Origin: Microgenomates group bacterium Gr01-1014_5
Lineage (GTDB): Bacteria; Patescibacteriota; Microgenomatia; UBA8517; UBA10165
Assembly: GCA_007376395.1 (NCBI GenBank)
Contig: VMGE01000004.1
Coordinates: forward strand, 70,431-134,430
DNA length: 64,000 bases
Direction of reading: 5' to 3'
Position 1 is the first letter of the stretch. Every line of letters starts with the position of its first letter. Position numbers and translations under genes: made by a program. The notes under the pieces are model-generated. The model searched no databases and was not told the origin of the DNA. It worked only from the letters and a program-made list of their open reading frames with translations. Shown here piece by piece: positions 21,962-48,946 of this stretch.

Positions 21962-23944
<1,983 letters not shown>

Positions 23945-29296: not shown

Positions 29297-31084
29297 TTAC
29301 GGCACTATCTCCCTCCAGACTTTGCCTTTGCGCAGAAGCTCACGGGGGAAGGTGAGGAGGAGGTCAGGGGCATATTCAAAGTATTCTGATGCCGTAGTTG
29401 AGTTTTGTCCTGCTCCTAAATCACGTTCTAGTGCCACTCCACCCCAGGCAATGACAGAACCTCTGACATATAGGCGGGAGCTTCCTGCCCCTGTGGAGAA
29501 CAGGCCGTCAGTCAGGAAGATTCCTTCCAAGCTCGGGTTGTTAGGATGTGAGACCTGAGGGTCAAGAGTTAAATTTCCTTTAACGATTGCCCCAAAGAAG
29601 CCAACGCCATCCTCAATGGTAATGTTGTTGCCGATGGTTAAATTACCGTTAACAATTAATATTATTTTTTCAGTCATCTCGTTTAGATTACTATTGGTTG
29701 ATAAATCTCCGTTGCGGTAATTCCAGAAGTAACCATCGGGGCGCTTTTTGTTTTCGTTTTTCAGTTGGCTGACATTAATGGTCGCTGTGTCAATGGCATA
29801 TATAGGGTTGGTAAACACTTCCGGAGGGACACTGCCTGTAAAGTATTCATAGTTATACTCGCGGCCAGTGTAAGGTAAAGGAGTAATCTGCGCCTTCCAG
29901 TCTTTGGAAGAGAGAGTCCCTGCCCCTGTACTGAGTGTTCCAGAGTAAGCTACAACCCCGGGATAACCTCCTGCCCCATCTTTAATTAGTTCGTAGGCAG
30001 AACTCGGAATTGTCGACCTAATGTCTCCTTGGGAGATTAAGTCTCCGTCTTTCACCTGCCACCAGGCAGGAAGGTTGGCACACACTCCCCCCAGGCATTG
30101 CAAATCCCCACTGCAGGACGAACCGGAACAGCACTGTTGGGCAAAAGCGCCGCATGCAACACACACACCGCTTTGACAAATTTGTCCATTACTGCAACCG
30201 GGCTGGCTAAGGCAAGGTGACTGGGTATATGCAGTATCAGTGCATGATCCGCCTCCGCTATAGGTATTGTACGTGCAGGTTTGACTGCCTCCTCCCCCGC
30301 ACTGGAGACTGCAGGTAGAGCAGTTGCTAGCGCCTTGATCACAGGCAGGAGTTACAGGAGGACCCCCGCCCCCAGGCGGAGTTCCCGGAGCATCGCAAGT
30401 CGGGTTGCAATTATTGCCCGTACAGTTGCAGTAAAGCTGACCGGTACAGCAGGTGAGAGAGCCGACATAGAAGCCGCAGTTGCCTTGAGCGGGAACAGTG
30501 GTGCAAGCACCTCCACTACTTGGAGACGGGCTGGGAGAAGCAGTGGTGCCACCACCAGAAACACATTGAGCTGCGGTTGCCCCGCTGTTGCATTGGGAGT
30601 AGCAAGTGCACCAGGCGTCTCCCGGAGCAGTAAATGTCCCATAATATCCACAGTTCGCATCCCACTGTCCTGCGGTACAACCTCTGCAATTAACAGAATC
30701 AAAGTAACCACTTGTGCATACTGGAGAAGGGGATGGGGAAGCAGTTGTTGCCCCGCCAGTACCGCCGCACCCGCTACAGTCTCCTCCGCAGGGGCCGGGA
30801 GGGTTGTTAGACTGTGATCTGCGGCAAAATCCGTCGCAATAGAAATATTCACACTGACTTGGAGGCGTGGTAGTTGTACAAGATCCCTCACCCCATGTAT
30901 CTACACAGTTTTCTCCGTTCTCATCACAGGTTGTGGTACGTTCTCTACCCGTACACTCCCCTCCTGGACAATCGATATCACTTGTACAACCCGCCGAAGA
31001 ACTTGCAGGGAATAAAAAGAAGGACGCGAAAAACAAAACAAAGAGGGTGGACAGAAACAAGGAAATTATATGTACTTTTCTCAT
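29297..31084 (-). CDS. Secreted cysteine-rich repetitive protein with C-terminal beta-rich domain
   Basis: Signal peptide MRKVHIISLFLSTLFVLFFASFFLFPASSSA, >60 Cys, GGTTASPSPSP repeats, C-terminal NGNLTIGNNITIEDG...RGSVIAWGGVAL. Confidence 0.6.
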   Translation of the reverse strand: MRKVHIISLFLSTLFVLFFASFFLFPASSSAGCTSDIDCPGGECTGRERTTTCDENGENCVDTWGEGSCTTTTPPSQCEYFYCDGFCRRSQSNNPPGPCGGDCSGCGGTGGATTASPSPSPVCTSGYFDSVNCRGCTAGQWDANCGYYGTFTAPGDAWCTCYSQCNSGATAAQCVSGGGTTASPSPSPSSGGACTTVPAQGNCGFYVGSLTCCTGQLYCNCTGNNCNPTCDAPGTPPGGGGPPVTPACDQGASNCSTCSLQCGGGGSQTCTYNTYSGGGSCTDTAYTQSPCLSQPGCSNGQICQSGVCVACGAFAQQCCSGSSCSGDLQCLGGVCANLPAWWQVKDGDLISQGDIRSTIPSSAYELIKDGAGGYPGVVAYSGTLSTGAGTLSSKDWKAQITPLPYTGREYNYEYFTGSVPPEVFTNPIYAIDTATINVSQLKNENKKRPDGYFWNYRNGDLSTNSNLNEMTEKIILIVNGNLTIGNNITIEDGVGFFGAIVKGNLTLDPQVSHPNNPSLEGIFLTDGLFSTGAGSSRLYVRGSVIAWGGVALERDLGAGQNSTTASEYFEYAPDLLLTFPRELLRKGKVWREIVP

Positions 31085-31895: not shown

Positions 31896-33215
31896 TTAAC
31901 GCCAAGTATCTATTCGTTGGGCGTATCCATAACTTGTTGGACCTCCCCTGATGCGCCGCGTTGTATATACTGGATCGCCTTTTTTAAAGTACAGATTCAT
32001 AGCTGTCAATGCAGAAGCTATTTCGGTTGATTTATAATGCGTCCATACCTTGGGGTATCTAGCAATGTAGAACCAAATCGAATCTTGCTCCTGCGGAACA
32101 AAGGATATTTCGTTTATTTCGTTCAAATCGTCTTTATTGGTGGCTATTTTCAGTACTAGATTATTACCGTCTACAGACCAATCAATAAGTTTACCGGAAA
32201 GCTGAAGTGTATGAGTTTTTTCATTTATACCTTCTTTACGATACCAAGGCATGTTTAATGCTTTAGCAACCTGTTCCTCGTCATAGATAAATCCTCCCGG
32301 CGGCAACGGAGGTACATTTACGGTCGGTTCTGTCTTTACCGGTTGTTCAGGTTGAGCCGAGAAATTGCCAAAGTTTAGGTCAGGGGAGGCAAGTTGGGCA
32401 TCGCGTGGGACGAGACCTGCGGCTTTGGCGGCATCTCCGACTAAAATTCTTTGAATTAGTCCGTCTTTTTCCCAGCGCTGAACTGCAATTCTCTGCATTC
32501 TCCAAACTTTGTAGCCGCCGTAGTCCTTGCCTTTTGAAGTAAAAACTCCTACTTCCAGCCCGCTCCTGCGGTAACTATTGGCAAACTCAACAACGTCTGA
32601 GGGAACTCCAAAGATGTCTACTCTGTTTCTAAAGGCTATCTCTAGATTTCCGCCGGATTTATCGTCTACTTGCTCATATGGGGGAACAGTAACTCCCAGG
32701 GAACCGTTATCAAGTTTTGCGTCCAACCCTGCTTTGTTCATTTCGTCCAAAGTGTTCCAAAGGCGGACTTCTCCGGTAGTTGGTTCTTCCTGCACCATTA
32801 AGCCTTGATATCCGAGCATATTAAATCCGTCCGGAGCTTTCCAGGCATTAGTTACCCTGTAGCCAAACTGGTCTACTGTATATTTAGTTTCCGCAACAGC
32901 GCGTATACGGGCAGTAACCTCAGAAACTCCACCGTCTGCCTCTGCAGTCCTAATACCAACACCGAGTGATGAAAGTCTTTCTGCAAGACCGGTGGCAGGA
33001 TTTGTTCCTTTAGCCTCCGAAACAATTGGTTTAGGTGGCTGTGGAACGGTTACCTCAGGGCTAAGAGCTGCTGCTCCTGCAGCAATTGAACTCACTCCCA
33101 CCAGTCGGAGTGCTCTGCTCCAGAAAGAAGGTCTGGTATCTCTGTGTTGGACTGAGCCTGTAACTGTACCTATTTCTTGTCGGCTTGGCATTGGCTTCTC
33201 CTCGGAATCTGGCAT
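31896..33215 (-). CDS. Hypothetical secreted protein
   Basis: 439 aa; N-terminal RPSFWSRALRLVGVSSIAAGAAA signal/Tat-like region. Confidence 0.5.
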   Translation of the reverse strand: MPDSEEKPMPSRQEIGTVTGSVQHRDTRPSFWSRALRLVGVSSIAAGAAALSPEVTVPQPPKPIVSEAKGTNPATGLAERLSSLGVGIRTAEADGGVSEVTARIRAVAETKYTVDQFGYRVTNAWKAPDGFNMLGYQGLMVQEEPTTGEVRLWNTLDEMNKAGLDAKLDNGSLGVTVPPYEQVDDKSGGNLEIAFRNRVDIFGVPSDVVEFANSYRRSGLEVGVFTSKGKDYGGYKVWRMQRIAVQRWEKDGLIQRILVGDAAKAAGLVPRDAQLASPDLNFGNFSAQPEQPVKTEPTVNVPPLPPGGFIYDEEQVAKALNMPWYRKEGINEKTHTLQLSGKLIDWSVDGNNLVLKIATNKDDLNEINEISFVPQEQDSIWFYIARYPKVWTHYKSTEIASALTAMNLYFKKGDPVYTTRRIRGGPTSYGYAQRIDTWR

Positions 33216-33301: not shown

Positions 33302-33871
33302 TCAACGTCTTTCAGGACCAACTGCCCGTCTTCCTAGAACTGATTCAAAAACTAATTGCAATTCCTGCACAATCTCTGCTGCTGGCCGCTCAGAATCAAC
33401 AACTAGATCTGCCTTGTTTATTAGTTCAACCATACCCGCCTCTAACTTCCAGTTGTCAATCAATGCCATTTCCTTTCCTGCTTCTGTTTTATTGGTACCT
33501 AGTCTCCCCTCCATCCTCGCTTCTCGCGTTATTTCCCCAACGGTCAAGGCTATGATGAAAACTTTACAATCTCCAATACTTTCTAATAGAGTTTGAGGAA
33601 TCCGCCGGTCATAAGAACCGTCAATTATGACCGCTTGTCCACTACTTTGCTCTTTAGTGACTCTGACGGTTTCCTGCAACGCTTCATCGAGAATAACTTG
33701 CAACCCTACCGACTCAAGCCAGTGTCTTGTACGTGTGTATCCCTCTCGTTCCGCAAGCTGGTGAAGAATTTCCCGTTCGCCCACAATAGGAATGCCTAAT
33801 CTTTCTCTAAGAAAACGTGCGATTGTTGTTTTACCTGTAGCCGACAAACCTGTAAACAAAAAAATATTCAT
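33302..33871 (-). CDS. P-loop kinase-like ATPase
   Basis: Walker A FTGLSATGKTT, DxD VIIDGSYD; start at M27 of ORF 33302..33949 giving ATGA overlap with upstream NUDIX gene. Confidence 0.55.
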   Translation of the reverse strand: MNIFLFTGLSATGKTTIARFLRERLGIPIVGEREILHQLAEREGYTRTRHWLESVGLQVILDEALQETVRVTKEQSSGQAVIIDGSYDRRIPQTLLESIGDCKVFIIALTVGEITREARMEGRLGTNKTEAGKEMALIDNWKLEAGMVELINKADLVVDSERPAAEIVQELQLVFESVLGRRAVGPERR

Positions 33872-34281
33872 AGGTTGAGTAATGTTAATACTTCTTTTAT
33901 ACCCGGAACCAGCTTGGGCATTTTTCGTGCTTGCGCTAGGTTCACCCATTTGTATTCCGAGTGTTCTTTACTTAATAAAATCTTTCCTTTGTAGTGTGTG
34001 AGCATAATAATTCGCAAAAGATGTAGACGTTTTCCTGCAACTGAGAATGTTTTGGAACATACATCAAAACTTTCGGCATCTTTCAATTTAAGTCCCAGTT
34101 CTTCGTCAAGTTCGCGAGCAAGAGTTTCTCTTGGTTGTTCACCAAATTCCATTTTTCCTTCTGGTAGCTGCCAATACTCTTGAAAACTCTTATTGGTTTT
34201 AGAGCGCTTGAGAAGAAGGATTCTTTCTTGAGCATCGCACAGAACGCCAGTCACTAATATAACAAAGCCGTTATCTCTCAC
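33868..34281 (-). CDS. NUDIX hydrolase
   Basis: Canonical Nudix box GKMEFGEQPRETLARELDEELGL. Confidence 0.75.
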   Translation of the reverse strand: MRDNGFVILVTGVLCDAQERILLLKRSKTNKSFQEYWQLPEGKMEFGEQPRETLARELDEELGLKLKDAESFDVCSKTFSVAGKRLHLLRIIMLTHYKGKILLSKEHSEYKWVNLAQARKMPKLVPGIKEVLTLLNL

Positions 34282-34534: not shown

Positions 34535-35506
34535 TCAAGAGGGAAAATGAGGAACTCTTAGTATTTTGGAGTTATTGCTTCTAAGAAAGTTTCCAATCCG
34601 ACTCTTATTCCCACAAATAAACTTTTTTATTGTCAATAGAGAAGGCACCGTACTTGCACCTATTCCCCCAAGTTTTTCTTTCTCAGCTATTTTTAAACTC
34701 GCATATAGAGAGGCAAATAAAGCTGCTTCTTTTAAATCTTGATACTGTAGAAAATGTATAATAAAAGCAGTTGCATAGACGTCTCCCGCACCGGACAGGT
34801 TTACAGGCTCATTAGAAGATAACTCAAAGGCCTTGATTCTTATGGGTTCTTTTGGGGTATTTTTATAAACAAGAGATCCATTTCTGCCGCACGTTAGAAC
34901 AGTTACAGAACTATGCATTATTAGCCTCTCGAGCAACAATTTTCGGGAAAAACCACTGTTATTAATAGTAATATCTTCTTCACTAAACACTGTAATTCTA
35001 GAGTAAGAAAGCGAGGATATTTTTCTCCAAACGATTTGTTTAACCTTACCGCTTTTTTGTATCTTACGAAAGTATCCCTGGGGAGTTGCTGTAAAATAAC
35101 CTAATTTTTCTAGAATAGGGAAAAGAGCCTCTTCTACTTCAGCAACAACTGATGCTATTAATATCACTGAGTTGTCTGGAAAACTTGGGAAAAAGTCTAG
35201 ATCTTCAACAGTGATTCTTTCTTGGGTATCGGTAACTACCTGCTCTCGGTTACCATCTTTACTAAAAAAATTTTTAAAGGAGGTTAAACCCTTCTTAATA
35301 TTCGATTGTCGAATGGGTAGCGGATATACAACAATCCCCATTTTTTCAAGTTGACGGACGTATGGATGTTTTTGTGGTATTTTAGTGATGATATGGGCTC
35401 GAAATCCCAGTTTCATTGCAGCAACCGCCGAGTAAACAACCGCCCCTGATACATGGCTTCTCGGCACGATATCTTCAGTCACATGTCCTATTGTATAAAA
35501 ATTCAT
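34535..35506 (-). CDS. PfkB-family (ribokinase-like) sugar kinase
   Basis: N-terminal GG-like region and C-terminal SGAGDVYATAFI catalytic GAGD motif. Confidence 0.75.
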   Translation of the reverse strand: MNFYTIGHVTEDIVPRSHVSGAVVYSAVAAMKLGFRAHIITKIPQKHPYVRQLEKMGIVVYPLPIRQSNIKKGLTSFKNFFSKDGNREQVVTDTQERITVEDLDFFPSFPDNSVILIASVVAEVEEALFPILEKLGYFTATPQGYFRKIQKSGKVKQIVWRKISSLSYSRITVFSEEDITINNSGFSRKLLLERLIMHSSVTVLTCGRNGSLVYKNTPKEPIRIKAFELSSNEPVNLSGAGDVYATAFIIHFLQYQDLKEAALFASLYASLKIAEKEKLGGIGASTVPSLLTIKKFICGNKSRIGNFLRSNNSKILRVPHFPS

Positions 35507-35653
35507 AATACAGTTTACCCTAAAGTTTTACCCATCTTACCGCTCGCTGAATACACATCTTATCACATAGGATTTTCAGAATTTACCGTTAATCAATACT
35601 ATAAGTAGATATTGGGGTACGTTGAGGTTATAATTAGCAAATTAGTCGGTTAT

Positions 35654-37315
35654 ATGGGCAAGAAAATAGTGATTGATCCAAAAAGTCGTCTATATTTAGG
35701 TATCGGGGGTTCTACCCACGACTTTTCGGCATGTTTACTAAAAGACGGAAAGATAGTATCCGCAATAGAATCTGAAAGGATTAGTAGGGTAAAACATTCG
35801 CTTGATATGTTCTCTCCCATTAACTCTTCCATAAAATACCTCTTACCTCAAAGAACGAAGATTAATGAGATAAGCTCCTCTGACATTCTCAATATTTATA
35901 ATTGGTATGATTACAAAGATCAAATTAAATTTTACAATCACCACTTATGTCATGCTGCTTCCAGTTTTTTCACAAGTCCGTTTAAAGAAGCAGCAGTCTT
36001 TGTTTGCGATGGATTGGGAAGCTATAATCACACTAGTAAAGGGTATGAATATGAAACCTACTCCTATTACTCTGCAAAGAATAGACATATCAATCTAATA
36101 AAAAAGAATGTTGGCTTCGTGAACGAGCAACTAGATGAAACACACGTACACTCTATTGATGTCCCGAATTCTCTAGGGCTTTTTTACAACACCATAACTA
36201 AGCTTATTGGTTTTGGTTTTTTACAGGACGGCAAGACAATGGGGTTATCAGCTTATGGTAATAGCAATAAATATTACAAACAAATTATAGAATATTTTAG
36301 TTTTAAGCCTAGTGGTATTATTAACATATCTTTTGGCGAAAAAGAGGCTAAGCTGTTCTATGAACAAAACAATAGATATAAGTCATCAAAAACCAGATTG
36401 GAATTTCACGCAAACATTGCTGCGTCAAGTCAAAGGATATTAGAGGAATGTTATTTTTACTGTTTAAATTATCTCTATAAAGTCGCTCCTAATGATAATT
36501 TGTGCATTTCTGGTGGGGTTGCCTTGAATAGTGTCGCGAATGGGAAAATTACTCAGAACACACCTTTTAAAAATATTCACATCTTCCCTGCATGTGGTGA
36601 CGCGGGTATAGCAATCGGATCGGCATATTTATCTTATTATAAAGCGAACCGAAGGAGAGTGCTTGTAAAAAATCAGTCTCCGTTTCTTGGAAAGAATTAT
36701 AGCAAAAGTGCAATCTTATCTGCTCTCCGAGCAAAAAGAGTTAAACATGTCGAAACAACCAATGTCTATACGAAGACCTCAAAGTTACTCACCAACGGTA
36801 AAATAGTCGCGTGGTTTCAAGGCAGATCGGAAATAGGTCCTCGAGCTTTAGGACATAGAAGTATTCTGGTTGACCCGAGAAAAAGATGGATGAAAGACTA
36901 CTTAAACAAAAAAGTTAAAAAGCGGGAACCTTTTCGACCATTTGCGCCAGCGATTTTAGAAGAATATGTGAGTGAATTTTTTGAAAAGTCACGAAGATCT
37001 CCTTATATGCAAGAAGTTTTCACTATTAAAGAACCTATGCAAAAATTTATACCTGCGGTTGTACACGTAGACGGAACAGGAAGGATACAAACAGTCGGTC
37101 CTGATAATGAAAAGTTTTATAGACTTATCAAAAGCTTTTACAAAAACACAGGTGTGCCTGTGGTTTTAAACACTTCGTTTAATGTAAATTCAATGCCAAT
37201 CGTAGAGACTCCAGAAGATGCCATTGAATGCTTCTTGCAGACCAAAATCGATGCACTTGTAATAGGCAACTTTATTTGTACAAAAACAAATGACAATAGA
37301 AAGACCAACAAGTAA
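35654..37315 (+). CDS. Carbamoyltransferase, NodU/CmcH/TobZ family
   Basis: LGIGGSTHDFSACLL, YNHHLCHAASSFF, ASKH-fold N domain and Carbam_trans_C-like C domain; start at M15 of ORF 35612..37315. Confidence 0.8.
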   Translation: MGKKIVIDPKSRLYLGIGGSTHDFSACLLKDGKIVSAIESERISRVKHSLDMFSPINSSIKYLLPQRTKINEISSSDILNIYNWYDYKDQIKFYNHHLCHAASSFFTSPFKEAAVFVCDGLGSYNHTSKGYEYETYSYYSAKNRHINLIKKNVGFVNEQLDETHVHSIDVPNSLGLFYNTITKLIGFGFLQDGKTMGLSAYGNSNKYYKQIIEYFSFKPSGIINISFGEKEAKLFYEQNNRYKSSKTRLEFHANIAASSQRILEECYFYCLNYLYKVAPNDNLCISGGVALNSVANGKITQNTPFKNIHIFPACGDAGIAIGSAYLSYYKANRRRVLVKNQSPFLGKNYSKSAILSALRAKRVKHVETTNVYTKTSKLLTNGKIVAWFQGRSEIGPRALGHRSILVDPRKRWMKDYLNKKVKKREPFRPFAPAILEEYVSEFFEKSRRSPYMQEVFTIKEPMQKFIPAVVHVDGTGRIQTVGPDNEKFYRLIKSFYKNTGVPVVLNTSFNVNSMPIVETPEDAIECFLQTKIDALVIGNFICTKTNDNRKTNK

Positions 37316-38483
37316 TAACGATACAGAAACTCTAAAGACCTACCGTGCGCAACTTGAATTATTTCTCAGAGAACGTGGCTGGGAAAGGAGAGATTGCTCA
37401 AGATGTGAAAGGCAATACTACGCCAAAGGAGTTTCGCAAAATTGTGGAGATTCAACGTGTTGTGGCAGTTTCGAATTTCTCCAAGATGTTAGAAGAGAAA
37501 GATCTCTAACACTTCCTGGGTTAGAAATAGTTGTTCGGAATCACTTCGAGAACGCAGGGTTTGAACTCCATCCTCCTAAATCAATTCTCAACGAAGGTGG
37601 TACAACGTTGTTCACGTCAGCTGGAGTCCAGTTATTAGACGACTGGGTATTAAAGGACGCCAACCCTCCCCGGAGACCTCTTTATGTATCGCAACCCAGC
37701 GTTCGTACACAGCACCTTGACAGTATAGGAGAGGGTAACTCTTTGTCTTTTGTAAATATATGCACAGAGGTTGCTAATGCAACTCCAGAAACACACTTCG
37801 TAAATTTAGACCATTGGCTAGACTGCTTGTCTAGACTTGGTCTATATGTTGGAGATATTACCTTGCACGAGAGGAGGCTAATTCAGCAATGGGGAGATGT
37901 TACACTCAAAAGCGAAATTATAGCCATTTTCTATAAAGGACTAGAGATTGGAGACGGAAACTATAATTATGGCTTTACTCCACAAGCATCCAACGCCACA
38001 TTCATTAGCGACTTTGGTTTTGGACTTGAAAGATTGGCGTGGATTTTGCGTAAAGGTTCGTATTTCGACGGAGTAGGACCATTAAGTGAATCTCTTAAAG
38101 GAAACAGTGTTCTCCAAGAATTAATTAAAACACTAACTTTACTCTCTTCTTATGGACTCGAACCCTCAAATAAAGATAGGGGTTATCGTTTCAGGCTTTT
38201 TGCGAAAAAGCTGGTAGCTCTTACTTTCCCTGAACACTGCGTAGTTTTCCCATTGGCTTCATATTACTATAATTATTGGAAAAACTTTGCTGACTTGCTG
38301 ATCCAACAGGATCTTGTAGTAGACATAATACAAAGAGAGTATGACAGAAACTACAACCAGAGGGTCAACTTATTACTCTCGGCAAAGTCTGATCCTAATT
38401 GCCCAACAGAAGAATATCTCTTAAAATTACTTATGTCCAGAGTTAGCAGAGATGGGATTGCTCAAATACTAAGGGGTAATTAA
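37290..38483 (+). CDS. Stand-alone alanyl-tRNA synthetase catalytic-core homologue with N-terminal Cys zinc ribbon
   Basis: TLFTSAGVQ (AlaRS LLFTNAGM), SQPSVRTQHLDSIGEGNSLSFVNICTE (SQRCVRAGG...FFEMLGN), SDFGFGLERLAWIL (DTGMGLERIAAVL); only 397 aa, no tRNA-binding/editing/C-Ala domains; CSRCERQ...CGDSTCCG. Confidence 0.7.
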   Translation: MTIERPTSNNDTETLKTYRAQLELFLRERGWERRDCSRCERQYYAKGVSQNCGDSTCCGSFEFLQDVRRERSLTLPGLEIVVRNHFENAGFELHPPKSILNEGGTTLFTSAGVQLLDDWVLKDANPPRRPLYVSQPSVRTQHLDSIGEGNSLSFVNICTEVANATPETHFVNLDHWLDCLSRLGLYVGDITLHERRLIQQWGDVTLKSEIIAIFYKGLEIGDGNYNYGFTPQASNATFISDFGFGLERLAWILRKGSYFDGVGPLSESLKGNSVLQELIKTLTLLSSYGLEPSNKDRGYRFRLFAKKLVALTFPEHCVVFPLASYYYNYWKNFADLLIQQDLVVDIIQREYDRNYNQRVNLLLSAKSDPNCPTEEYLLKLLMSRVSRDGIAQILRGN

Positions 38484-38489
38484 TATTAT

Positions 38490-39191
38490 ATGATCTTATT
38501 CTTATCAGGGGGTGGCAATAGTAAAGATTCTAAAGAACTCGATAAAAGATTTTTAGATCTTTTGCCCAACAAGAAATTTCTCTATATACCAGTCGCTCTC
38601 GAGGGAGAGCAAAATTATTCTTATCGAAAGTGCTACGAGTGGATTAAAGACGTTTTTTCAATACTGACTAGTAATTCACCGAATATAACAATGTTGACGG
38701 ATTTGGCCTCGGCTAACATGGACTTCTTAAAATCTTTTGACGCCATATACATAGGAGGAGGAAATACATACAAGTTAATAGGTCGTATGGCGGAAAGTAA
38801 ATTTAATAAATTATTACTTGCGTTTGTCAAAAACGGTAAACCAGTGTATGGAGGGAGTGCTGGAGCTATAATATTCGGAAAAAGTATTGCTACGGTTGAA
38901 GAAGAGAATGTAAACAATTCTAGTTCTGACCAGGGATTAAATTTACTGAAGGGTTTTTCTGTAAAATGTCACTATAGAAATACAAAAAGTGAAGTCGATT
39001 TAATTAATAACTTTATCAAGCAGAGAAATGGTGGGGTATTTGCTCTTCCAGAACAAACAGGTTTAATCATTACAAACACCTCAATTGAAGTTGTGGGAAA
39101 TAAGCCTGCTTATGTCTTCTCAAACAAACGACGCGGATCTGCAAAAAATATAGGTAAACTTATCCGAACAGGAAGTTTTGTGTATTTATAG
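38490..39191 (+). CDS. Peptidase S51 / type-1 glutamine-amidotransferase-like protein
   Basis: MILFLSGGG, AIYIGGGNTYKL, VYGGSAGAII pattern of PepE/cyanophycinase-like fold. Confidence 0.55.
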   Translation: MILFLSGGGNSKDSKELDKRFLDLLPNKKFLYIPVALEGEQNYSYRKCYEWIKDVFSILTSNSPNITMLTDLASANMDFLKSFDAIYIGGGNTYKLIGRMAESKFNKLLLAFVKNGKPVYGGSAGAIIFGKSIATVEEENVNNSSSDQGLNLLKGFSVKCHYRNTKSEVDLINNFIKQRNGGVFALPEQTGLIITNTSIEVVGNKPAYVFSNKRRGSAKNIGKLIRTGSFVYL

Positions 39192-40104
39192 TGGTGATGG
39201 CAACTACTGCTTGTTCAGAAATACCAAATAAATCTTCGATGACTCTTACTTCATCAGAATAAGCATGTTTGCTACGAACTACCCCATCTGCTTCTATTGA
39301 AGTTGTCCACGGCTCATCTGTCCCCCATACAAGATTACCCTTCATCAACTGATAATATCTTAATAACGAGCTCGCGGGTTTCAACGGATCTATCATATTT
39401 GGATACTTTACGCTAGTATTACCCTCAGAAACAGCAGCGCATAATTGCAAAAAGGGAGAGCAGTCTATGTATATATTGCCCATTCTCGAAATCTCAAAGA
39501 TTGCTTCCTGGTCAAGTGCTGCCAAGTGTGCAACACATAATCTAAGCTTTGGGAATTGTCGGCCTATCTCTAAAATATTGCCTGGGCGAGACAGTGCATC
39601 TGGACCCGAATGAACTAAAATAGGCAAATTATTACCCTGAGCAAACTCAGCGAATCCGCTTGTAATAAGTTTCTCTGCGCCACAACCACAGGCTAGAGTA
39701 TGAAATTTTAAGCCGTAAATTTTACCTGAATCTAAAAGTTCTCTTAAAAAATCGATCTGCTTGTGTACTTCTGTGTTCGGATCAATACACGCGAAAGGAA
39801 ATATATCTCCCTTAAATTGTTCACAATCACTGACAAGCACCCTGTTTTCTGTTTGATAAGGGAAGTCTTGAAAACCTGATGGCTCCCTTCTCCCTTCCAA
39901 AACCAAGGTTCTTGTGTTGTAATAAGTCGAACCTGGAAATGGAAAAGTGACTACTTTGTCAACACCTGCAAGTCTAGCCTTGAACATTAAGTCGGAAACA
40001 GCTTGTGTGTGGGGTAAGTTTCCTACAAAATAGTTATATGCATCAGTTCCCCCAGAATGAGTATGGCAATCTATGGCATTTCTAATCCCAAGTTCTTTTA
40101 ACAT
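39160..40104 (-). CDS. Amidohydrolase-2 family metal-dependent hydrolase (TIM barrel)
   Basis: AIDCHTHSG metal-binding HxH, conserved His/Asp downstream; 314 aa. Confidence 0.6.
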   Translation of the reverse strand: MLKELGIRNAIDCHTHSGGTDAYNYFVGNLPHTQAVSDLMFKARLAGVDKVVTFPFPGSTYYNTRTLVLEGRREPSGFQDFPYQTENRVLVSDCEQFKGDIFPFACIDPNTEVHKQIDFLRELLDSGKIYGLKFHTLACGCGAEKLITSGFAEFAQGNNLPILVHSGPDALSRPGNILEIGRQFPKLRLCVAHLAALDQEAIFEISRMGNIYIDCSPFLQLCAAVSEGNTSVKYPNMIDPLKPASSLLRYYQLMKGNLVWGTDEPWTTSIEADGVVRSKHAYSDEVRVIEDLFGISEQAVVAITTINTQNFLFG

Positions 40105-41348
40105 CAGTGGTTTATAAGTTTTCCGTCTATAAATTCTGAAGTAATCTTTTGAACCTTGTCTAGATAACTATTAACAACTTTATAGACAACCGCCTTGTCT
40201 GCTAGTGTGACTACTCGAATTAACCAAGGTTTGTCGAGAGGTCCACCGTTTTGCGAAACTATTTCAACAATATTTGATTTACCTGTTTTTTTATATAACT
40301 TAGATGATATCTTCTTGGTCACGACTGAATATATAAAACCAGAATAATACCTGGGATTTTTACCGTTAACACCTTCCATACTCATCGGTCTGTTTGATGT
40401 GATAAGACCGTTTGCTCTATTGCCTCTCCCAACAACACCGATATCACCAGACAAAGATGCACCTGATACCGTAAGATATACATTCAACTTTTCGTAATCA
40501 TCCTTTGTATTAATAGATATATCGATAGAATGTTTAGGTAAGTGTGTTTTAAATTTTCCCTCTATTATCCTACCAATAGTTTCTAAATTATTTTTGTAAT
40601 TCGTAAGGGAATGTACGTATTTTGCAATTTGCGGTATACACAAAGTAATACCAATTTTTTTCTGATTTCTAACAGCCATAATCTTAATATCAGATCCCAA
40701 CCACTTAAATTTCACTTTTGTTTTCTTATCGTTCAAGAACTTCTCCACTCTAAGTACTGCCGTCTCTAATTCTGAGTATGGAGAATATGCTATACAGTAT
40801 GAGGTGTCGTTCGCTACCAACTTCTCATAACCTCTGACGTGTACTTTATCCTTAGGTGAGAACATACTAGCTATAGCTCCTTTGCTATTTTTAATAGTTC
40901 CTGGACCGGGATAATCTGTTAGTTTGTTTTCTATCTTTATGTCGTGTTCGAGATCGACCAGAGGAAAGCGCTCTTTAAAATAATTTTTTATCGACGAACT
41001 TAATATCTCGTTCACAGGGATATCGTTTCCCTTATAAGAATAGGTAATCCTTCCTGCAATAATTACTCTAATTGGTTCTAGAAATTCTCCCCCACCGAAA
41101 TCGATCCTAGTCTTTCCACCGATTATCATAAGCTTGTCTATCTGATGGTGAAGAACTAACCCATCACATCTCTTTGTTGTATAAATGGAATATCTACGAC
41201 TAAGATCAGCAGCTAAACTATCTGCAATACTGTCAGGATGTCCCAGACCCTTCCTTTCGATTGTTTCAAAATCCCCATAAAAAGGGTTTGCATCTACTAT
41301 TGTAAGATGACTCGTCTTAATCCCATTTGGCCCAAAAGATATCGACAT
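40104..41348 (-). CDS. S-adenosylmethionine synthetase, archaeal type
   Basis: ERKGLGHPDSIADS, HHQIDKLMIIGG, NDTSYCIAYSP, INTKDDYEKLNVYLTVSGASLSGDIGVVGRGNRANGLITSNRPMSMEGVNGKNP align along whole length with archaeal MAT. Confidence 0.85.
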   Translation of the reverse strand: MSISFGPNGIKTSHLTIVDANPFYGDFETIERKGLGHPDSIADSLAADLSRRYSIYTTKRCDGLVLHHQIDKLMIIGGKTRIDFGGGEFLEPIRVIIAGRITYSYKGNDIPVNEILSSSIKNYFKERFPLVDLEHDIKIENKLTDYPGPGTIKNSKGAIASMFSPKDKVHVRGYEKLVANDTSYCIAYSPYSELETAVLRVEKFLNDKKTKVKFKWLGSDIKIMAVRNQKKIGITLCIPQIAKYVHSLTNYKNNLETIGRIIEGKFKTHLPKHSIDISINTKDDYEKLNVYLTVSGASLSGDIGVVGRGNRANGLITSNRPMSMEGVNGKNPRYYSGFIYSVVTKKISSKLYKKTGKSNIVEIVSQNGGPLDKPWLIRVVTLADKAVVYKVVNSYLDKVQKITSEFIDGKLINH

Positions 41349-41990: not shown

Positions 41991-42356
41991 TCACTCGAGC
42001 AAAACTTTGTTATCCAGAATGCTCGGGTATCTAACGCCTAAAATTGTCAATTCTTCTTTAACTTCGATTATTTTTTCTGGTGTGTCTTCTGGAACAGCTA
42101 GGTAATCCCCTTTTTCCAGTTCAAACGTTTCCTTGCCGACTCTAAATACAGCCTCGCCTTTTAAGACTACCATATATTCTCTTCCTTTTGGATGTTTGTG
42201 CAATTTGTCTGATGGCGTACCAGGTACAAAGGTCTTGTAATATATCTCTATGTGATCATCTTTGAAAGAGCTTCCGTCAGGGAAAAATTGCCCCACCAGC
42301 CAGCCTCTCATTGTTTTTTGCTGGACAGAAACTTTCCCTATTTGAATATTACTCAT
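41991..42356 (-). CDS. Cupin-domain protein
   Basis: HKHPKGREYMVVLKGEAVFRVGKETFELEKGDYLAVP two-motif cupin signature. Confidence 0.6.
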   Translation of the reverse strand: MSNIQIGKVSVQQKTMRGWLVGQFFPDGSSFKDDHIEIYYKTFVPGTPSDKLHKHPKGREYMVVLKGEAVFRVGKETFELEKGDYLAVPEDTPEKIIEVKEELTILGVRYPSILDNKVLLE

Positions 42357-42921
42357 TTTTATTCCTTTGTTCGCTCTCGATATTGTTAACGAGTTCTGCC
42401 AGTTCTTCCTCGGTTAACAAACGTATATCTAGTTCTTTGGCGACTTCGCGAATCTTATTTTCTGCTTCGCTCTTCTTGTTTTCATCATCAACGACCAACT
42501 CAAGCTCCAAGTGATATTGCCAATGCTCGCTAAATTTTAGTGCAAGTTCGACTCCATTATATAAGTAATTATTTCTTTTTTGAAAAGAATGCATTATGTT
42601 ATCGGTAACTTTCAGTTTAGTAAATATTTCTACTGCTCTGCCTACTTCACTTTGCTGTACAGGGAATTCTATTTCTTCAAAAGCGCTTCCCTTGCCAATT
42701 CTATTTAATTTTAGAGTTATTTTCGCTGTACCTTGAGAAGTGTTGCTGGTAACTTTCAAAAGCTTGTCGGGAAAAATGAAGAAGTGCACGTCTTTATCGT
42801 CTTCACCCAAGTTTTCTGCGTTTTTATCCAGAAATTGTTTAAGACGGTCGTATTCTGCCTTGTCAAAAACAGACCTAAATTCTATTTCAAAATTTCTCGC
42901 AGACTTGTTCGCTTTCTTCAT
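42349..42921 (-). CDS. CYTH-domain protein (triphosphate tunnel metalloenzyme)
   Basis: N-terminal EIEFRSVF (EXEXK-type start), alternating acidic beta strands; start at M16 of ORF. Confidence 0.55.
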   Translation of the reverse strand: MKKANKSARNFEIEFRSVFDKAEYDRLKQFLDKNAENLGEDDKDVHFFIFPDKLLKVTSNTSQGTAKITLKLNRIGKGSAFEEIEFPVQQSEVGRAVEIFTKLKVTDNIMHSFQKRNNYLYNGVELALKFSEHWQYHLELELVVDDENKKSEAENKIREVAKELDIRLLTEEELAELVNNIESEQRNKNE

Positions 42922-42992
42922 CGCGTGAAGAAAGTATAACAGAGCTGGACATAAGACAAAAAACATATTATTACAATGCTATAATCTTATTT

Positions 42993-43451
42993 ATGGAAGA
43001 TAGAAAAATACATATTCGTTTAAGACTTATTATTATAAAAAATGGCAAGCTTTTAGCTTCATATACCAAAAAACGCGATTTTTACTTTTATATCGGAGGC
43101 CATATGGAAAATGGAGAAACAGTGCTTCAAGGGTGCAAGAGAGAAATTATTGAGGAATGTGGGGAAGGAACTGAATTTACACTAAACAAAATTCTTTATA
43201 TTAGAGATTTCTTTGACCCGGATAACGGCGAACAAAATCTTGAGCTTTTTATTTTGGGTGATATTAATAAAGATAAAGGGCTTGAACACAAATTAGATTA
43301 TCAACACCCTGACGGTTCGATGTGGTTAACCTGGCTCGATGTCGAAAATTTACCTAATAATATATTCCCCAAACAATTAAGCAGTAAACTTTTGGAAGAT
43401 TACAAGCAAGGATTCCCTAACTCCGGGGAATATATTGGCGAAATTGAATAA
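42993..43451 (+). CDS. NUDIX hydrolase
   Basis: Nudix box GGHMENGETVLQGCKREIIEECG. Confidence 0.7.
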   Translation: MEDRKIHIRLRLIIIKNGKLLASYTKKRDFYFYIGGHMENGETVLQGCKREIIEECGEGTEFTLNKILYIRDFFDPDNGEQNLELFILGDINKDKGLEHKLDYQHPDGSMWLTWLDVENLPNNIFPKQLSSKLLEDYKQGFPNSGEYIGEIE

Positions 43452-43530: not shown

Positions 43531-44613
43531 CTAAAAAGCCAGGAGCGCCCCGAAGATTATTAGTAAGAATCCGGCTCCGATAGCCAGGTAAGTTGGAAGG
43601 CTAAACCCGGCAACCGGTGTCTCGCCTGAGGGTGTGGTTGTTCCCCCTTGAACTCCGGAAACAGTAAATGTGGTGGTGTAAGTCCCGTTAGAATCGGTAA
43701 TGGTAAGCGTGTGCGTTCCTGCTGACAAGGTCGAAGGGATGGCGTAACTCCATTTACCTGTTGCGTCGGCCTTGACTGTAGCCGTTATCGGTTCAGATTG
43801 AATTGTAATGGTTACGTTGGAATTTGGTTTGGCAGTTCCTGTGATTGTATCCCCTGCCTTGACCGTCTTGTTGGCTGGCAGTGTGACCGTAGGTTTTGCG
43901 GCTGGCGAGGCTGAGGCTGAAGGCGCTGCTGATGGTGAAGGCGAGGCAATTGATCCGCCAACTGGTGCAGTAGATGGGCTAGGAGAGGCAGAACTTCCCG
44001 CTACGGGAGACGCCGAGGGTGAGGGTGATAACGGTAATGCTGGCGAGGCTGATGCTACCTGTGCCGGTGATGGAGAAACAGCTCCACCAGCCGCCAGAAT
44101 AGATATGGTTGCCGGATTTTTAGCAATAATGACGTTTGTCGCTTCGCTGGTTCCCGCGGCCTTAGTATTCGGACCAAAAGTAATTGCCGCATTCCCTGCG
44201 GCCTTTGCTTCAAATTTAAGTGTGGCGATGGTCCCTTTTCCCTGGGGAGGGTTGGCTGGTTGTGCTCCTAAAGAAATAGTGGCAGACCCGGCTGTATTGT
44301 TGATTTGGGCTTTAGCTAATTCGACCGGTAAAAGTGTCGAAGGAGAAAAACTGGCGAGTGTTAGCTTTTCTTTATCGAAATTAATCTCCAGCTCAGTTCC
44401 GGAGAGAACGTTGGTCGAAGTGTCTACCTCAACCGTAACATCAAAGCTTTCCCCGACCAAAATAGTCTTAGCTGGTTTTTTAATACTAATGGTTGTTGCC
44501 GGAGCCGCTTTTTCGCGGAGATCTTGCTGTTGGCGCATTAAATAAAGCCCGGCTCCCAAGCCAGCCAAGATTAAAAATAAAACAATAATAGCGACAATTT
44601 TCTTTGTACTCAT
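43531..44613 (-). CDS. Cohesin-domain surface protein with Ser/Pro/Ala-rich linker, Ig-like domain and C-terminal TM anchor
   Basis: N-terminal TM, cohesin-like ILVGESFDVTVEVDT...GKGTIATLKFEAKAAG, SPSPS linker, C-terminal hydrophobic anchor. Confidence 0.6.
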   Translation of the reverse strand: MSTKKIVAIIVLFLILAGLGAGLYLMRQQQDLREKAAPATTISIKKPAKTILVGESFDVTVEVDTSTNVLSGTELEINFDKEKLTLASFSPSTLLPVELAKAQINNTAGSATISLGAQPANPPQGKGTIATLKFEAKAAGNAAITFGPNTKAAGTSEATNVIIAKNPATISILAAGGAVSPSPAQVASASPALPLSPSPSASPVAGSSASPSPSTAPVGGSIASPSPSAAPSASASPAAKPTVTLPANKTVKAGDTITGTAKPNSNVTITIQSEPITATVKADATGKWSYAIPSTLSAGTHTLTITDSNGTYTTTFTVSGVQGGTTTPSGETPVAGFSLPTYLAIGAGFLLIIFGALLAF

Positions 44614-44615
44614 AT

Positions 44616-45164
44616 CTAATCAACAATTATATAGCCTGCGGTGGTTTCTTTTAAAACATTAAAGGATTTTTGCACAGCTGCTGCCTGGCTCCCTTCGAGA
44701 CTTAGATTACTCCTGCCTTTTTGCAGACCTTTAATTTTTATTTTTGCAACAGTCCCCTTTCCCTGTTTTGCCCTAATACCTCCAAGAACAAAAGTAACGT
44801 TACCTTTCTTTTGGTTAATCGTTTGCTCTAAAACGTTTGCTTTTTCAAAAAACAACCCAGGAGTAATATCTGTAACTTCGATAAATTTTGGGTTGTAGGA
44901 AAGTACGGCTTCTACTGCGCTTACTGAATCTTCATTCGTGTCGATGTTAATCGTCACGAAAGTTTCAACACCTTTTTTAACCGTAATATTTGCCGGGTTA
45001 AGGGTCAATATTGTTGTTTTTTCCTCACTTAACGCTTGAACATTCAATTTGTTTACGGATAATTTATCCGTACCGGATACAAGATATGAAAAAGTACCCA
45101 CACCAATTAGTGCCAGGCATAAAAAAGCGAGACTCCAGTTTTTAAGGACAGAATTTGTTTCCAT
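44616..45164 (-). CDS. Cohesin-domain protein
   Basis: VKKGVETFVTINIDTNEDSVSAVEAVLSYNPKFIEV...GKGTVAKIKIKG. Confidence 0.55.
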   Translation of the reverse strand: METNSVLKNWSLAFLCLALIGVGTFSYLVSGTDKLSVNKLNVQALSEEKTTILTLNPANITVKKGVETFVTINIDTNEDSVSAVEAVLSYNPKFIEVTDITPGLFFEKANVLEQTINQKKGNVTFVLGGIRAKQGKGTVAKIKIKGLQKGRSNLSLEGSQAAAVQKSFNVLKETTAGYIIVD

Positions 45165-46276
45165 TAATCCCCTACTTTGCCGAAGTTTTGCACGACAAGA
45201 TTGTAATCAAAAATGTCGACGTCGTTGTCGAAATCTAAATCAGCAGGACTTCCCCCGGAAGGCATTCTTGACCCAAAATCCTGGACGATTATATTGTAAT
45301 CAAAAATGTCGACAACATTATTGTCAACAATATCTCCAGCTATTAATCCAAGATACCCGTCTTTCGGAACAGTTACGGTTTTGCCCGTACTGAAACCTAC
45401 CGTGCCAATTTTCTTTCTCAGCTGGGATAGCGCATTTACAAAAATGTGGTAGGTACCGATAGGTGCCGTTAGGCTGGCGGTATATGTTCCGTCGCCGTTG
45501 GTTACGGCACCTGAGGTAGCGCTTGAATCCATTGGTTGACCAGAATCGGCAAGTGCAGATTCGAATCTAACATCAACGGGAATTTTCCGGCCGCGTTCGG
45601 TAGCTGATCCTGAGGTCACCCCTTCAAATTTAAGGTTAAGAATAAGATTGTCGACGGAAGGTGGGTTTGATTTTGAAACGTATACACTCGCCGGGTAAAA
45701 ATTACTCGCGACATTTACTTGTTTGTAAATGGCCGCGACTTGCGAACCGTCTGCCAGGGAAAGAGTGGCGTTGCCTTCTTGATTTGAAGCCACGAATTTA
45801 ATGGTGGCCACTTTGCCATAGCCTGAAACTGGTGTTTCTGTTTTACTACCGACTGCGAAAGAAATTGTTGTGGGCGGTGGCGGGTATTGAAGTGTCATTA
45901 CGTCAGGAATTGTGGGTTCTTCTAGGATTACCGGCAGAAAGCCGCCCACAGTCACCCCTGCTTCTTCTGCGTGCAATAGTGTGCCGTCATAAGTCAAAAC
46001 AATCTCTGCGGCAGTGACATTATTAGAACCAGTGTCCAACATGACGTCGACATAAAATGTTTGGTTTGGTGCGACGTTTATAATGTCAGGCTGAAGTGAC
46101 AGTGTTGCCGGGAATTCATAGCCGCCAGTACCGGAAACAGGAGAACCGGCTCGCGAGAATGGATTCGTTGGAGAAAGCGCGAGATAAACAATTACCGGGG
46201 TAACCAAAAGAAAGACAAAAAGGCTTGTTAGGGCAAATCGTTGAGTGAAGTTTAAACTACGCCATTTTAGGAACAC
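45164..46276 (-). CDS. Cohesin-domain protein with C-terminal tandem dockerin
   Basis: Cohesin core FYVDVMLDTGSNNVTAAEIVLTYD...GKVATIKFVAS; C-terminal DIVDNNVVDIFDYNIIVQDFG ... DLDFDNDVDIFDYNLVVQNFG dockerin repeats. Confidence 0.65.
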   Translation of the reverse strand: MFLKWRSLNFTQRFALTSLFVFLLVTPVIVYLALSPTNPFSRAGSPVSGTGGYEFPATLSLQPDIINVAPNQTFYVDVMLDTGSNNVTAAEIVLTYDGTLLHAEEAGVTVGGFLPVILEEPTIPDVMTLQYPPPPTTISFAVGSKTETPVSGYGKVATIKFVASNQEGNATLSLADGSQVAAIYKQVNVASNFYPASVYVSKSNPPSVDNLILNLKFEGVTSGSATERGRKIPVDVRFESALADSGQPMDSSATSGAVTNGDGTYTASLTAPIGTYHIFVNALSQLRKKIGTVGFSTGKTVTVPKDGYLGLIAGDIVDNNVVDIFDYNIIVQDFGSRMPSGGSPADLDFDNDVDIFDYNLVVQNFGKVGD

Positions 46277-46312
46277 ACCCTACTGTAATATACTATTAAT
46301 AGGAGTGTCAAC

Positions 46313-47539
46313 TTGAGATTTATTACGCGGTTAACTATTCTTAAAATTACCTTTTTTTCAGGGATTTTTTTGCTTCCTTTTATAGTTTGGCCTGCCTCAC
46401 CTACTCCTTTTGAAGTTCCCAGGGTGTGGGTATTTTCCCGCTGGGTTGAATTATTAGTTTTTCTGTTGGTTTTTAATCTTGGAAAAATTCAAAACAAACC
46501 AAATGTTTGGCTTTTATTTCTTACTCTTGCATTTTTCTTAATCGAGGCTGGCGCTTCTTGGTTTGGAGTTGATTGGACAAAGAGTTTAATCGGCAACTAT
46601 TACCGCGCCGATGGCCTTATCACTCTACTGCATTCTGTGATTCTTGTATTTTTCCTCGCTTTATTTTGGACCAAGAGTTATTCACGGACACTGGCTTATG
46701 TTTTTCTTTTTAGCTCTGCTCTGGTTTCTTTTTGGGCGCTTGATGAATTTATTAGCCTGCATTTTTTGAGAAACCTGAGTATTCCTAATTTTTCCGGAGC
46801 AGTTGGCGCTTCGTTTGGCCAGCCTAATTTTTTGTCCGGGTATCTTTTAGTCGGACTCCCCTTCTCGTTTTATGCCTACACCTTAAATAGCGGAGGTTTT
46901 CGTGCACTTGTTAGAATCGGCATTATATTACAAGTCTTGGCTGTCTTTTTAACTATGTCATGGGGTGGCATCCTTGGATTAATTCTGCTGTTGCTTTTTT
47001 ACTTTCTTTTGTCAGGTAAAAAACTAGCAGTCAAAATTTCTCTTGGGTTAGTATTGTCACTGACCCTGGCCGGCGCATTATTTTATTATGCCCAAAGCCG
47101 TCCTAAATTTGTAGCTGGTTTTCAAGAAATCGCTCTTCATCCCCAAAGCAGGGAGCGCATTATTAAAAACACGTTATATGCGTTTAATCTAAAGCCGTTT
47201 GCCGGATGGGGGCGGTCAAATTTTGATTATGCTTTCACGGCCAATCCCAACGACACAAGGTATGGCAGTGATGTTTATGTGGACCGCGCACATTCGGTGC
47301 TGGCTGAGACTGCTATTTCCTCGGGAGTAATAGGCCTTACTGCTTATCTTTCTTTGGCTATTTTTGCGCTTGTATTGATTTTAGTCCGGTTAAGGAAAGG
47401 TAAGGACACTGGTTGGAATAAAGCACTACTAATATCACTACTGCTCTACCTTTTCCACTCACAGACAAACGTTATTTCAATTAATGAAGAATTTTTCTTC
47501 TGGCTCATTGCAGGGATCGTGGCAAGTAATGAGTCGTAA
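46313..47539 (+). CDS. O-antigen ligase (Wzy_C) family membrane protein
   Basis: ~10 TM helices, periplasmic loop with HSVLAETAISSGVIGL Wzy_C motif. Confidence 0.6.
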   Translation: MRFITRLTILKITFFSGIFLLPFIVWPASPTPFEVPRVWVFSRWVELLVFLLVFNLGKIQNKPNVWLLFLTLAFFLIEAGASWFGVDWTKSLIGNYYRADGLITLLHSVILVFFLALFWTKSYSRTLAYVFLFSSALVSFWALDEFISLHFLRNLSIPNFSGAVGASFGQPNFLSGYLLVGLPFSFYAYTLNSGGFRALVRIGIILQVLAVFLTMSWGGILGLILLLLFYFLLSGKKLAVKISLGLVLSLTLAGALFYYAQSRPKFVAGFQEIALHPQSRERIIKNTLYAFNLKPFAGWGRSNFDYAFTANPNDTRYGSDVYVDRAHSVLAETAISSGVIGLTAYLSLAIFALVLILVRLRKGKDTGWNKALLISLLLYLFHSQTNVISINEEFFFWLIAGIVASNES

Positions 47540-48939: not shown

Positions 48940-48946
48940 ATCAGGT

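Follow-up and report, generated by a model that had tools for sequence, protein, structure and literature searches.

Among the paralogs of aminoacyl-tRNA synthetases (aaRS), the acylation of a target other than tRNA is an activity of a known kind. MshC, the cysteine ligase of mycothiol biosynthesis, is an aaRS paralog that has no function in tRNA binding; it forms an aminoacyl-adenylate, with which the amine of GlcN-inositol (GlcN, glucosamine) is acylated. Other class II cores devoid of a tRNA anticodon- or acceptor-binding module, such as GlyQ (the alpha subunit of bacterial glycyl-tRNA synthetase), AsnA, EpmA/GenX and HisZ, perform other tasks or depend on a partner. Alanyl-tRNA synthetase (AlaRS) is viewed as one of the evolutionarily most stable synthetases. 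The only paralog of its catalytic domain named in reviews is AcmF, characterised in 2024 (PMC12945691, PMC9437257). AcmF acts in ascamycin biosynthesis in Streptomyces sp. 80H647; it has lost residues for the activation of ATP and alanine (N219Q, D232E) and its donor is Ala-tRNA(Ala), supplied by a dedicated AlaRS (PMC12945691). It aminoacylates a small molecule, and a partner hydrolase removes the aminoacyl group. Here we describe a stand-alone protein derived from AlaRS, hereafter ALA, encoded in a 64,000-nt stretch of contig VMGE01000004.1 from Microgenomates group bacterium Gr01-1014_5 (the window, in which all coordinates are given unless a locus is named). The ALA family, its origin from archaeal AlaRS, its spread in bacteria of the candidate phyla radiation (CPR) and DPANN archaea, and its fixed partners, a peptidase S51-like hydrolase (S51) and an S-adenosylmethionine (SAM) synthase, are new. 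Literature searches found no paper on the ALA family or on a trio of S51, SAM synthase and synthetase.

The ALA gene (37290-38483, plus strand, ATG start) encodes 397 aa that comprise an N-terminal helix with a Cys4 ribbon, a class II aminoacylation domain and a shortened Mid1-like helical domain. An earlier note on this DNA had described the open reading frame (ORF) as the catalytic core of an AlaRS on the basis of three strings, all of which are found in the translation: TLFTSAGV (residues 106-113), SQPSVRTQ...SFVNICTE (134-160) and SDFGFGLERLAWIL (240-253). When the single sequence was compared with hidden Markov models (HMMs), its likeness to AlaRS was weak. Pfam PF01411 matched with 31.2 bits (cut-off 30.3) over residues 84-148 only, the NCBIfam model of archaeal AlaRS (TIGR03683) gave E 1e-16 and 60.4 bits (cut-off 744.7), and TIGR00344 gave 36.2 bits (cut-off 457). 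Searches with phmmer against archaeal AlaRS of the PDB aligned ALA residues 24-264 and 278-353 with the enzymes of P. horikoshii (E 3e-12) and A. fulgidus (E 2e-10). Profile-profile comparison (hhalign) of the ALA family with AlaRS reached 99.8% probability and E 2e-29 over 274 columns. The AF2 model of ALA (pLDDT 89.3) superimposed on archaeal AlaRS with TM scores of 0.70-0.72 in Foldseek, so the likeness claimed in the note holds up in both HMM searches and fold comparison. These data show that the ALA family descends from archaeal-type AlaRS.

ALA is nonetheless far from a complete synthetase. It shares about 20% identity with archaeal AlaRS (A. fulgidus 3WQY/2ZTG, P. horikoshii 2ZZE), from which it differs by the absence of Mid2, the editing domain, C-Ala and the GPCGPC-type loop, and by a shortened Mid1; Pfam PF07973 was not matched in the 397 aa. 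With these losses and with AlaRS scores far under the cut-offs, ALA cannot be the housekeeping AlaRS, as the note had stated. No second alaS was found in the window by tblastn with CPR AlaRS proteins as queries; in CPR bacteria, a canonical AlaRS that includes an editing domain (about 570-650 aa) is commonly encoded.

Two parts of the domain description had to be amended. The N-terminal Cys ribbon (C36-x2-C39 ... C52-x4-C57, 37395-37460) does contain four cysteines, but it is not an added domain: they align with the Cys4 of the A. fulgidus and P. horikoshii AlaRS N-termini (2ztg, 2zze), which makes the ribbon ancestral rather than a new fusion. All four are kept in about 65% of the 139 family members aligned for conservation counts, and about a third of the members are without the ribbon. 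The loss of tRNA-recognition, editing and C-Ala domains is correct for the last two and for Mid2, whereas Mid1 is kept at about residues 265-353 (PSN..GY..R). The helical C-terminal domain (residues 265-397; 38082-38480) retains the Mid1 residues D277, R280, L284, G289, P292-S-N294...G298-Y-R and R302, and P292-S-N294 matches N359 of A. fulgidus AlaRS. In the latter enzyme Mid1 spans residues 258-419 and Mid2 residues 420-484 (PMC8464048). The alignment with archaeal AlaRS reaches residue ~421 at ALA residue 353, and the last 44 residues of ALA form two or three helices in the AF2 model. The alignment thus ends near the Mid1/Mid2 boundary and Mid2, with its G3-reading Asp450, is absent from ALA. 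In true AlaRS the Asn of Mid1 and the Asp of Mid2 that read G3:U70 are more than 95% conserved (PMC6055181). The equivalent of Asn359, N294, is present in the window protein but in only 71 of the 139 relatives (51%). Together, these observations show that the ALA family has lost C-Ala and the editing domain along with the apparatus for tRNA(Ala) identity.

The adenylation site is preserved to a much higher degree. Residues were assigned to E. coli AlaRS numbering by motif, from the profile alignment. The segment T106-Q114 (TLFTSAGVQ, 37605-37631) is equivalent to TLFTsaGMQ of AlaRS, with Q114 conserved in 98% of the members. The motif 2 core QPSVR (37692-37706) aligns with SQ.sfR of AlaRS, its Q135 and P136 being invariant. 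R139 of this core corresponds to E. coli R69, which binds the alpha-phosphate and the carboxylate. SFVNICTE (37746-37769) is equivalent to TFFEMLGN, with F154 conserved and with N156 in place of the Glu of FFEM, a replacement that is specific to the family and invariant within it. In motif 3, D241-F-G243-F-G-L-E247-R248 (38010-38033) is equivalent to D235-T-G237-M-G-L-E-R, and D235 holds the alpha-amino group. The profile alignment thus contains the motif 2 and 3 arginines and the Asp that binds the alpha-amino group, all three near-invariant among the relatives. The counts are R139 (equivalent to R69) in 138/139, W201 (W170) in 132/139, D241 (D235) in 137/139, G243 (G237) in 113/139, and E247 and R248 (the GLER motif 3) in 138/139 and 139/139 respectively. 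Replacement of D241 by Glu is seen only in distant subfamilies.

The side-chain pocket behaves differently. The alanine-sized pocket of E. coli AlaRS is formed by N212, V214, G237 and W170. ALA keeps the last two, as G243 and W201, but in the pocket strand E219-I-G-D222-G-N224 (37944-37961), which hhalign aligned with E-I-W-N212-x-V214, the Asn has become Asp and the Val has become Asn. Both positions vary by subfamily and co-vary with gene context. Over the 139 members, position 222 is D in 88, I in 12, E in 12 and V in 11, and position 224 is N in 42, V in 22, S in 22 and G in 18. Because the pocket is remodelled and differs between subfamilies, alanine, which had been put forward (or else an analogue) as the likely amino acid, is not established as the substrate.

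The family is large. A word-indexed search of 5.8 billion proteins returned 16 members, among them an identical record annotated as a hypothetical protein, and an exhaustive profile search gave at least 279 clusters at 50% identity, counted by representatives that reach E 1e-30 or better; of the 150 best profile matches listed, most are 370-420 aa long. Among 185,579 species-representative genomes, a search seeded with the 16-sequence alignment, in which only two peptide patterns were used, found the family in 46 loci. Their hosts are mostly Patescibacteria and DPANN archaea (Woesearchaeota, Nanoarchaeota), and a few ALA-bearing metagenome-assembled genomes (MAGs) are labelled Gammaproteobacteria, Sphingomonadales or Bacillales. 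Ten family representatives that were looked up all came from metagenomic sources, with no cultured host. Nearly all members of the ALA family come from CPR bacteria and DPANN archaea that have not been cultured. In the CPR bacteria, ligase and SAM synthase are both archaeal in character, which points to a transfer of the module between domains. One locus lies clearly outside the CPR: in a MAG labelled Sphingomonadales (L045, 8444-13085, GC 0.68), the ligase is accompanied by a radical SAM protein, a DegT/PseC-type sugar aminotransferase and a family 4 glycosyltransferase (GT4), while SAM synthase and S51 are both absent. The pocket of this ligase reads E222/I224/E241/S243, with Phe at position 201.

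In order to define the recurrent partners of ALA, ORFs were called and clustered in all fetched loci and a gene was counted as a neighbour when it lay within five genes. Three sets are distinguished: 49 loci found through ALA itself, a set of 97 ALA loci, and 77 usable metagenome loci seeded with the archaeal-type methionine adenosyltransferase (MAT), that is, the SAM synthase. Among the 49, an S51 gene was adjacent or fused in 42 and the archaeal-type SAM synthase was a neighbour in 38, followed by Amidohydro_2 (9), carbamoyltransferase (7) and radical SAM (5). A bona fide seryl-tRNA synthetase (SerRS; 475 bits, above the cut-off) was within five genes in 23/49, in several arrangements and lineages, for example at L019 8537-9877 and L135 6425-7672. 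When the MAT alignment served as the seed, ALA was found beside MAT in 48/77 loci and S51 in 41/77, many of the others being too short to tell. Natural fusions join the ligase to S51 (P0119, P0228 and L056) and to a methyltransferase (P0175). No consistent tRNA gene was detected near ALA with ARAGORN across the loci scanned. Two tRNA-Ser predictions, at L068 2591-2673 and L070 2574-2656, were rejected as false positives that fall within the coding sequence of S51, at its 5' end in the region of the GGG...D motif.

Both widespread partners are found in the window. The S51 gene, which the earlier note had correctly placed after ALA, starts 6 nt past the ALA stop (38490-39191, plus strand; Pfam E 2e-29). 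Its triad S123, H161 and E188 is invariant in 81 partner sequences, and the product is catalytically intact as far as the sequence can tell, a predicted PepE-like Ser-His-Glu hydrolase. The second partner, the archaeal-type SAM synthase (40104-41348, minus strand; Pfam PF01941, E 2e-98), had been left unconnected. It is probably a working enzyme, since its residues 26-411 align with the solved SAM synthase 7p82 (E 2e-64) over nearly the full length with the hallmark motifs intact. Upstream, a TobZ/NovN/GdmN-type O-carbamoyltransferase (35612-37315, plus strand; Pfam Carbam_trans_N and Carbam_trans_C; PDB matches to 7xb6, GdmN, NovN and TobZ at E 1e-58 to 1e-73) is homologous to enzymes that carbamoylate sugars and natural products, and shares its last 26 nt with the start of ALA. 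This overlap, reported as translational coupling, is exact, but the association is specific to a clade (10/97 loci). An Amidohydro_2 metal hydrolase (39160-40104, minus strand) is convergent with S51 (32-nt overlap) and lies downstream of the SAM synthase (1-nt overlap). Amidohydro_2 occurs in 10/97 ALA loci and never shares a locus with a PIG-L deacetylase, a mutual exclusion that fits alternative routes of amine unmasking.

Extended operons were observed in other subfamilies. The first type is a tight co-directional operon of inositol-3-phosphate synthase (MIPS), MAT, ALA, S51, two GT4 and PIG-L, with gaps of -17 to +11 nt; the exception is a -77/-71-nt overlap of S51 with GT4 (L127, L122), which derives from longest-ORF start calls. 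A PHP phosphatase is included in the MIPS-MAT-ALA operons of L115 and L121. The best models for the genes of the MIPS/PIG-L operons are those of the mycothiol proteins INO1 and Mca/MshB. The second type has the order rSAM-rSAM-DegT-type sugar aminotransferase-MAT-ALA-x-MIPS (rSAM, radical SAM protein), with GT4 on the other strand, and the third the order MAT-ALA-rSAM-DegT aminotransferase-GT4, followed by SerRS; L096 contains a GFO/IDH/MocA oxidoreductase in addition. Each extended type thus combines an amine-generating enzyme, either a PIG-L deacetylase or a sugar aminotransferase, with glycosyltransferases. At least one gene of sugar or inositol tailoring was within five genes of ALA in 39/97 loci. 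The radical SAM partners gave weak, sub-threshold matches to many subfamilies, the strongest being to maturases and MoaA, with none to 2,3-aminomutase.

These operons follow the logic of mycothiol synthesis, in which MshA is a GT4, MshB a PIG-L deacetylase and MshC the aaRS-like ligase (PMC9437257 and established knowledge). The partners of MshC in its pathway, inositol-phosphate synthase, GT4, phosphatase and PIG-L deacetylase, are of the kinds found beside distant ALA members, and the same pairing of an amine with glycosyltransferases is used in aminocyclitol and aminoglycoside pathways. Like MshC, ALA is an aaRS catalytic core that has retained its adenylation residues but not a full tRNA-binding module (in ALA, Mid2 is absent). 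The resemblance is one of analogy and not of homology, because MshC is a class I cysteinyl-tRNA synthetase (CysRS) paralog and ALA a class II AlaRS derivative. In contrast to MshC, no thiol or zinc site is evident in ALA, which has S51 and SAM synthase as extra constant partners.

We tentatively propose, with confidence a little short of even, that ALA is an ATP-dependent amino-acid ligase, an analogue of MshC that would act on a small molecule of the amino-sugar or aminocyclitol type and not on tRNA. ALA would bind ATP and a small alpha-amino acid to form an aminoacyl-adenylate, a step that we infer because the motif 2 Arg, Trp201, Asp241 and GLER are near-invariant. An amine or hydroxyl of a small molecule other than tRNA would then receive the aminoacyl group; this acceptor is most likely a glycoside of the amino-sugar or aminocyclitol type, on which an amide would form as with the CysRS paralog MshC on GlcN-inositol. 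It is the neighbouring genes that suggest a small-molecule acceptor; a non-tRNA acceptor, as the note had supposed, is the best reading of the gene neighbourhoods. In the window genome, the TobZ-like enzyme would O-carbamoylate the same molecule and Amidohydro_2 may unmask it. S51 would deacylate the ligase product or its precursor, proofread it or take a protecting residue off it, and the pathway's radical SAM enzymes and methyltransferases would draw their SAM from the linked synthase.

Several observations weigh against this proposal. A simple ligase model leaves the constant presence of the SAM synthase unexplained. The genes for an amino-sugar or inositol acceptor stand beside ALA in several subfamilies (L093-L129, L133-L136) but not in the window, which is without MIPS, GT4, PIG-L and SerRS and where the partners are the carbamoyltransferase, Amidohydro_2 and a PfkB-family kinase. 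The subfamily that has the MIPS/GT4/PIG-L operons is the one furthest removed from the window protein (21-25% identity; Glu222 in the pocket, some with Glu241), and the transfer of the amino-sugar assignment to the window ALA is therefore indirect. Most CPR loci contain only ALA, S51 and MAT, often with SerRS and with no sugar genes nearby; there, and possibly in the window lineage too, the acceptor may therefore be generally available. The SAM synthase also adjoins true prolyl- (ProRS), methionyl- (MetRS) and seryl-tRNA synthetases in some loci, so its linkage may partly reflect a housekeeping neighbourhood. Finally, the retained Mid1 motif (R280, L284, G289, P292, G298, R302) could still take part in RNA binding.

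The most serious alternative, which we consider rather unlikely, is a transferase of the AcmF kind that would not activate an amino acid at all but would move an aminoacyl group from an aminoacyl-tRNA, for example the Ser-tRNA(Ser) of the neighbouring SerRS, to a small acceptor that occupies what was once the ATP site. Candidates for this acceptor are adenosine derivatives, for example SAM or a carbamoyl nucleoside, and S51 would take the role of AcmE. AcmF is the only characterised paralog of the AlaRS catalytic domain; its layout is truncated in the same way, and its partners are a dedicated aaRS (AcmD) and a hydrolase (AcmE) (PMC12945691), an arrangement that resembles SerRS/ligase/S51. By its description, AcmF is likewise a stand-alone truncated AlaRS-like protein beside a hydrolase, with an aminoacylation domain and tRNA-recognition parts, where ALA has an aminoacylation domain and a shortened Mid1 without Mid2. 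The presence of serS in nearly half of the ALA-seeded loci is suggestive only; the Asp241 to Glu change of some distant subfamilies is the same as D232E of AcmF, and the ever-present SAM synthase could make an adenosine-type acceptor. On the other hand, AcmF has lost most of the residues for ATP and alanine activation, whereas the ALA family keeps them almost invariantly (R139, D241, E247 and R248 in the window protein), which argues for selection on adenylation. ALA also differs from AcmF in its archaeal-AlaRS features and its CPR/DPANN lineages. Moreover, Mid2 and the G3:U70 readers are absent from ALA, no tRNA gene is consistently nearby and the window is without SerRS. We regard as clearly improbable that ALA modifies a macromolecule the way EpmA/GenX or GluQRS do, placing an amino acid on a protein residue or a modified tRNA nucleoside after radical SAM enzymes or methyltransferases have prepared the amino acid or the acceptor. 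No conserved gene for a candidate acceptor protein or RNA is linked to ALA, the radical SAM matches are weak and sub-threshold with none to 2,3-aminomutase, and the tight operons with glycosyltransferases, deacetylase and aminotransferase point instead to a small molecule.

A minimal or split AlaRS that still charges tRNA, with S51 replacing the missing editing domain, is very unlikely. In the natural fusions S51 does occupy the place of the AlaRS editing domain, the catalytic residues are intact, some ALA loci lie among aaRS genes, and Nanoarchaeum has a split AlaRS. Against this stand a score of 60 on the AlaRS model where the cut-off is 745, the absence of the essential Mid2 Asp, an Asn conserved in only 51% of members and the variable pocket positions. 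In addition, canonical AlaRS is common in the CPR and the two-pattern search found the ALA family in only 46/185,579 species genomes. A split AlaRS of the Nanoarchaeum kind was considered and rejected because the HMM scores are far under the cut-offs, the pocket varies and Mid2 is absent. We attach hardly any probability to a non-catalytic regulator comparable to HisZ with HisG, for which an amino acid or ATP would be the signal and the neighbouring SAM synthase or S51 the controlled enzyme. Such a role would account for a SAM synthase linkage that is constant across both domains of life, and paralogs of the HisZ type provide a precedent and appear among the structural neighbours of ALA. The full set of adenylation residues is nevertheless near-invariant, some operons contain ALA without S51 and L045 contains it without MAT, and the pocket diversifies with pathway context.

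The ALA family spans two radiations of ultra-small, mostly uncultured symbionts and is embedded in inositol and amino-sugar pathways in several lineages. If the protein is a small-molecule ligase as preferred here, specialised metabolism would exist in organisms thought to have almost none. ALA would then be a class II counterpart to MshC, and also an adenylating enzyme of compact size whose pocket varies in nature. A bolder proposal, to which we give little credence, is that ALA, S51 and SAM synthase form the core of a previously unknown CPR/DPANN pathway to an aminoacylated small molecule. Its product might be an aminoacyl amino-sugar-inositol that resembles mycothiol or an aminoglycoside and has a function as redox buffer, solute or host-directed agent. 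More radically, it might be an aminoacyl-SAM or aminoacyl-carbamoyl nucleoside that mimics an aminoacyl-adenylate, with S51 as a built-in deacylase by comparison with AcmD/E/F.

Synthetase-rich neighbourhoods of the SAM synthase were noted at L105, L116, L119, L125 and L130 and at L087 and L117. In some of these loci the SAM synthase gene is followed by S51 and a genuine ProRS without a ligase, and in others by a truncated GluRS/GluQRS-like gene (281-328 aa; GluRS, glutamyl-tRNA synthetase) and MetRS. The 486-aa class II synthetase that follows MAT-S51 in some loci was considered as an alternative ligase and rejected, since it is a genuine ProRS (566 bits, above the cut-off). By the TIGR00398 domain model, the 482-aa gene of L087 encodes a MetRS (363 bits, cut-off 336), although it scores below the full-length MetRS cut-offs. 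Both genes are housekeeping neighbours.

No other 5.7-kb stretch of the window has a GC as low as that of the five-gene cluster that runs from the carbamoyltransferase to the SAM synthase (35612-41348), 0.375 where the mean is 0.423 (sd 0.021). A serine recombinase gene is found directly upstream of the carbamoyltransferase in L001-L003, and an rve-type integrase in L005. Given the low GC and these recombinase and integrase genes near relatives, the five-gene module may be mobile. None of six cluster proteins matched a defence system in PADLOC. Rfam models matched neither a riboswitch nor a T-box in the window, their sole match there being one tRNA-Leu far from the cluster. A PfkB-family sugar kinase (34535-35506, minus strand) is divergent from the carbamoyltransferase and has a homologue in only 2 other loci; it can be counted only as a possible cluster member. 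The genes that flank the cluster (33302-34281 and 41991-43451) encode two NUDIX hydrolases, a CYTH triphosphatase-like protein, a cupin and a P-loop kinase; these nucleotide-handling genes might or might not be in the pathway.

The rest of the window contains genes of other kinds. A membrane H+-pyrophosphatase gene (19950-21959) is located between gyrB and gyrA in the minus-strand region 17263-23941. Two further minus-strand genes encode proteins without a Pfam match, a Cys/Gly/Thr-rich protein of 595 aa with an N-terminal hydrophobic stretch (29297-31084) and a protein of 439 aa (31896-33215). At 43531-47539, three consecutive minus-strand ORFs encode Ala/Ser/Pro-rich proteins with hydrophobic N-termini, which from their translations have the look of surface proteins, and are followed by a Wzy_C O-antigen-ligase-like membrane protein. 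A type IV pilus set occupies 48902-60355, with a PilB-like ATPase carrying an MshEN domain, a PilT-like ATPase, a PilC-like T2SSF protein and PilM. Within this set, at 53.9-58.3 kb, lies a run of small uncharacterised ORFs (150-185 aa) that possibly encode pilins.

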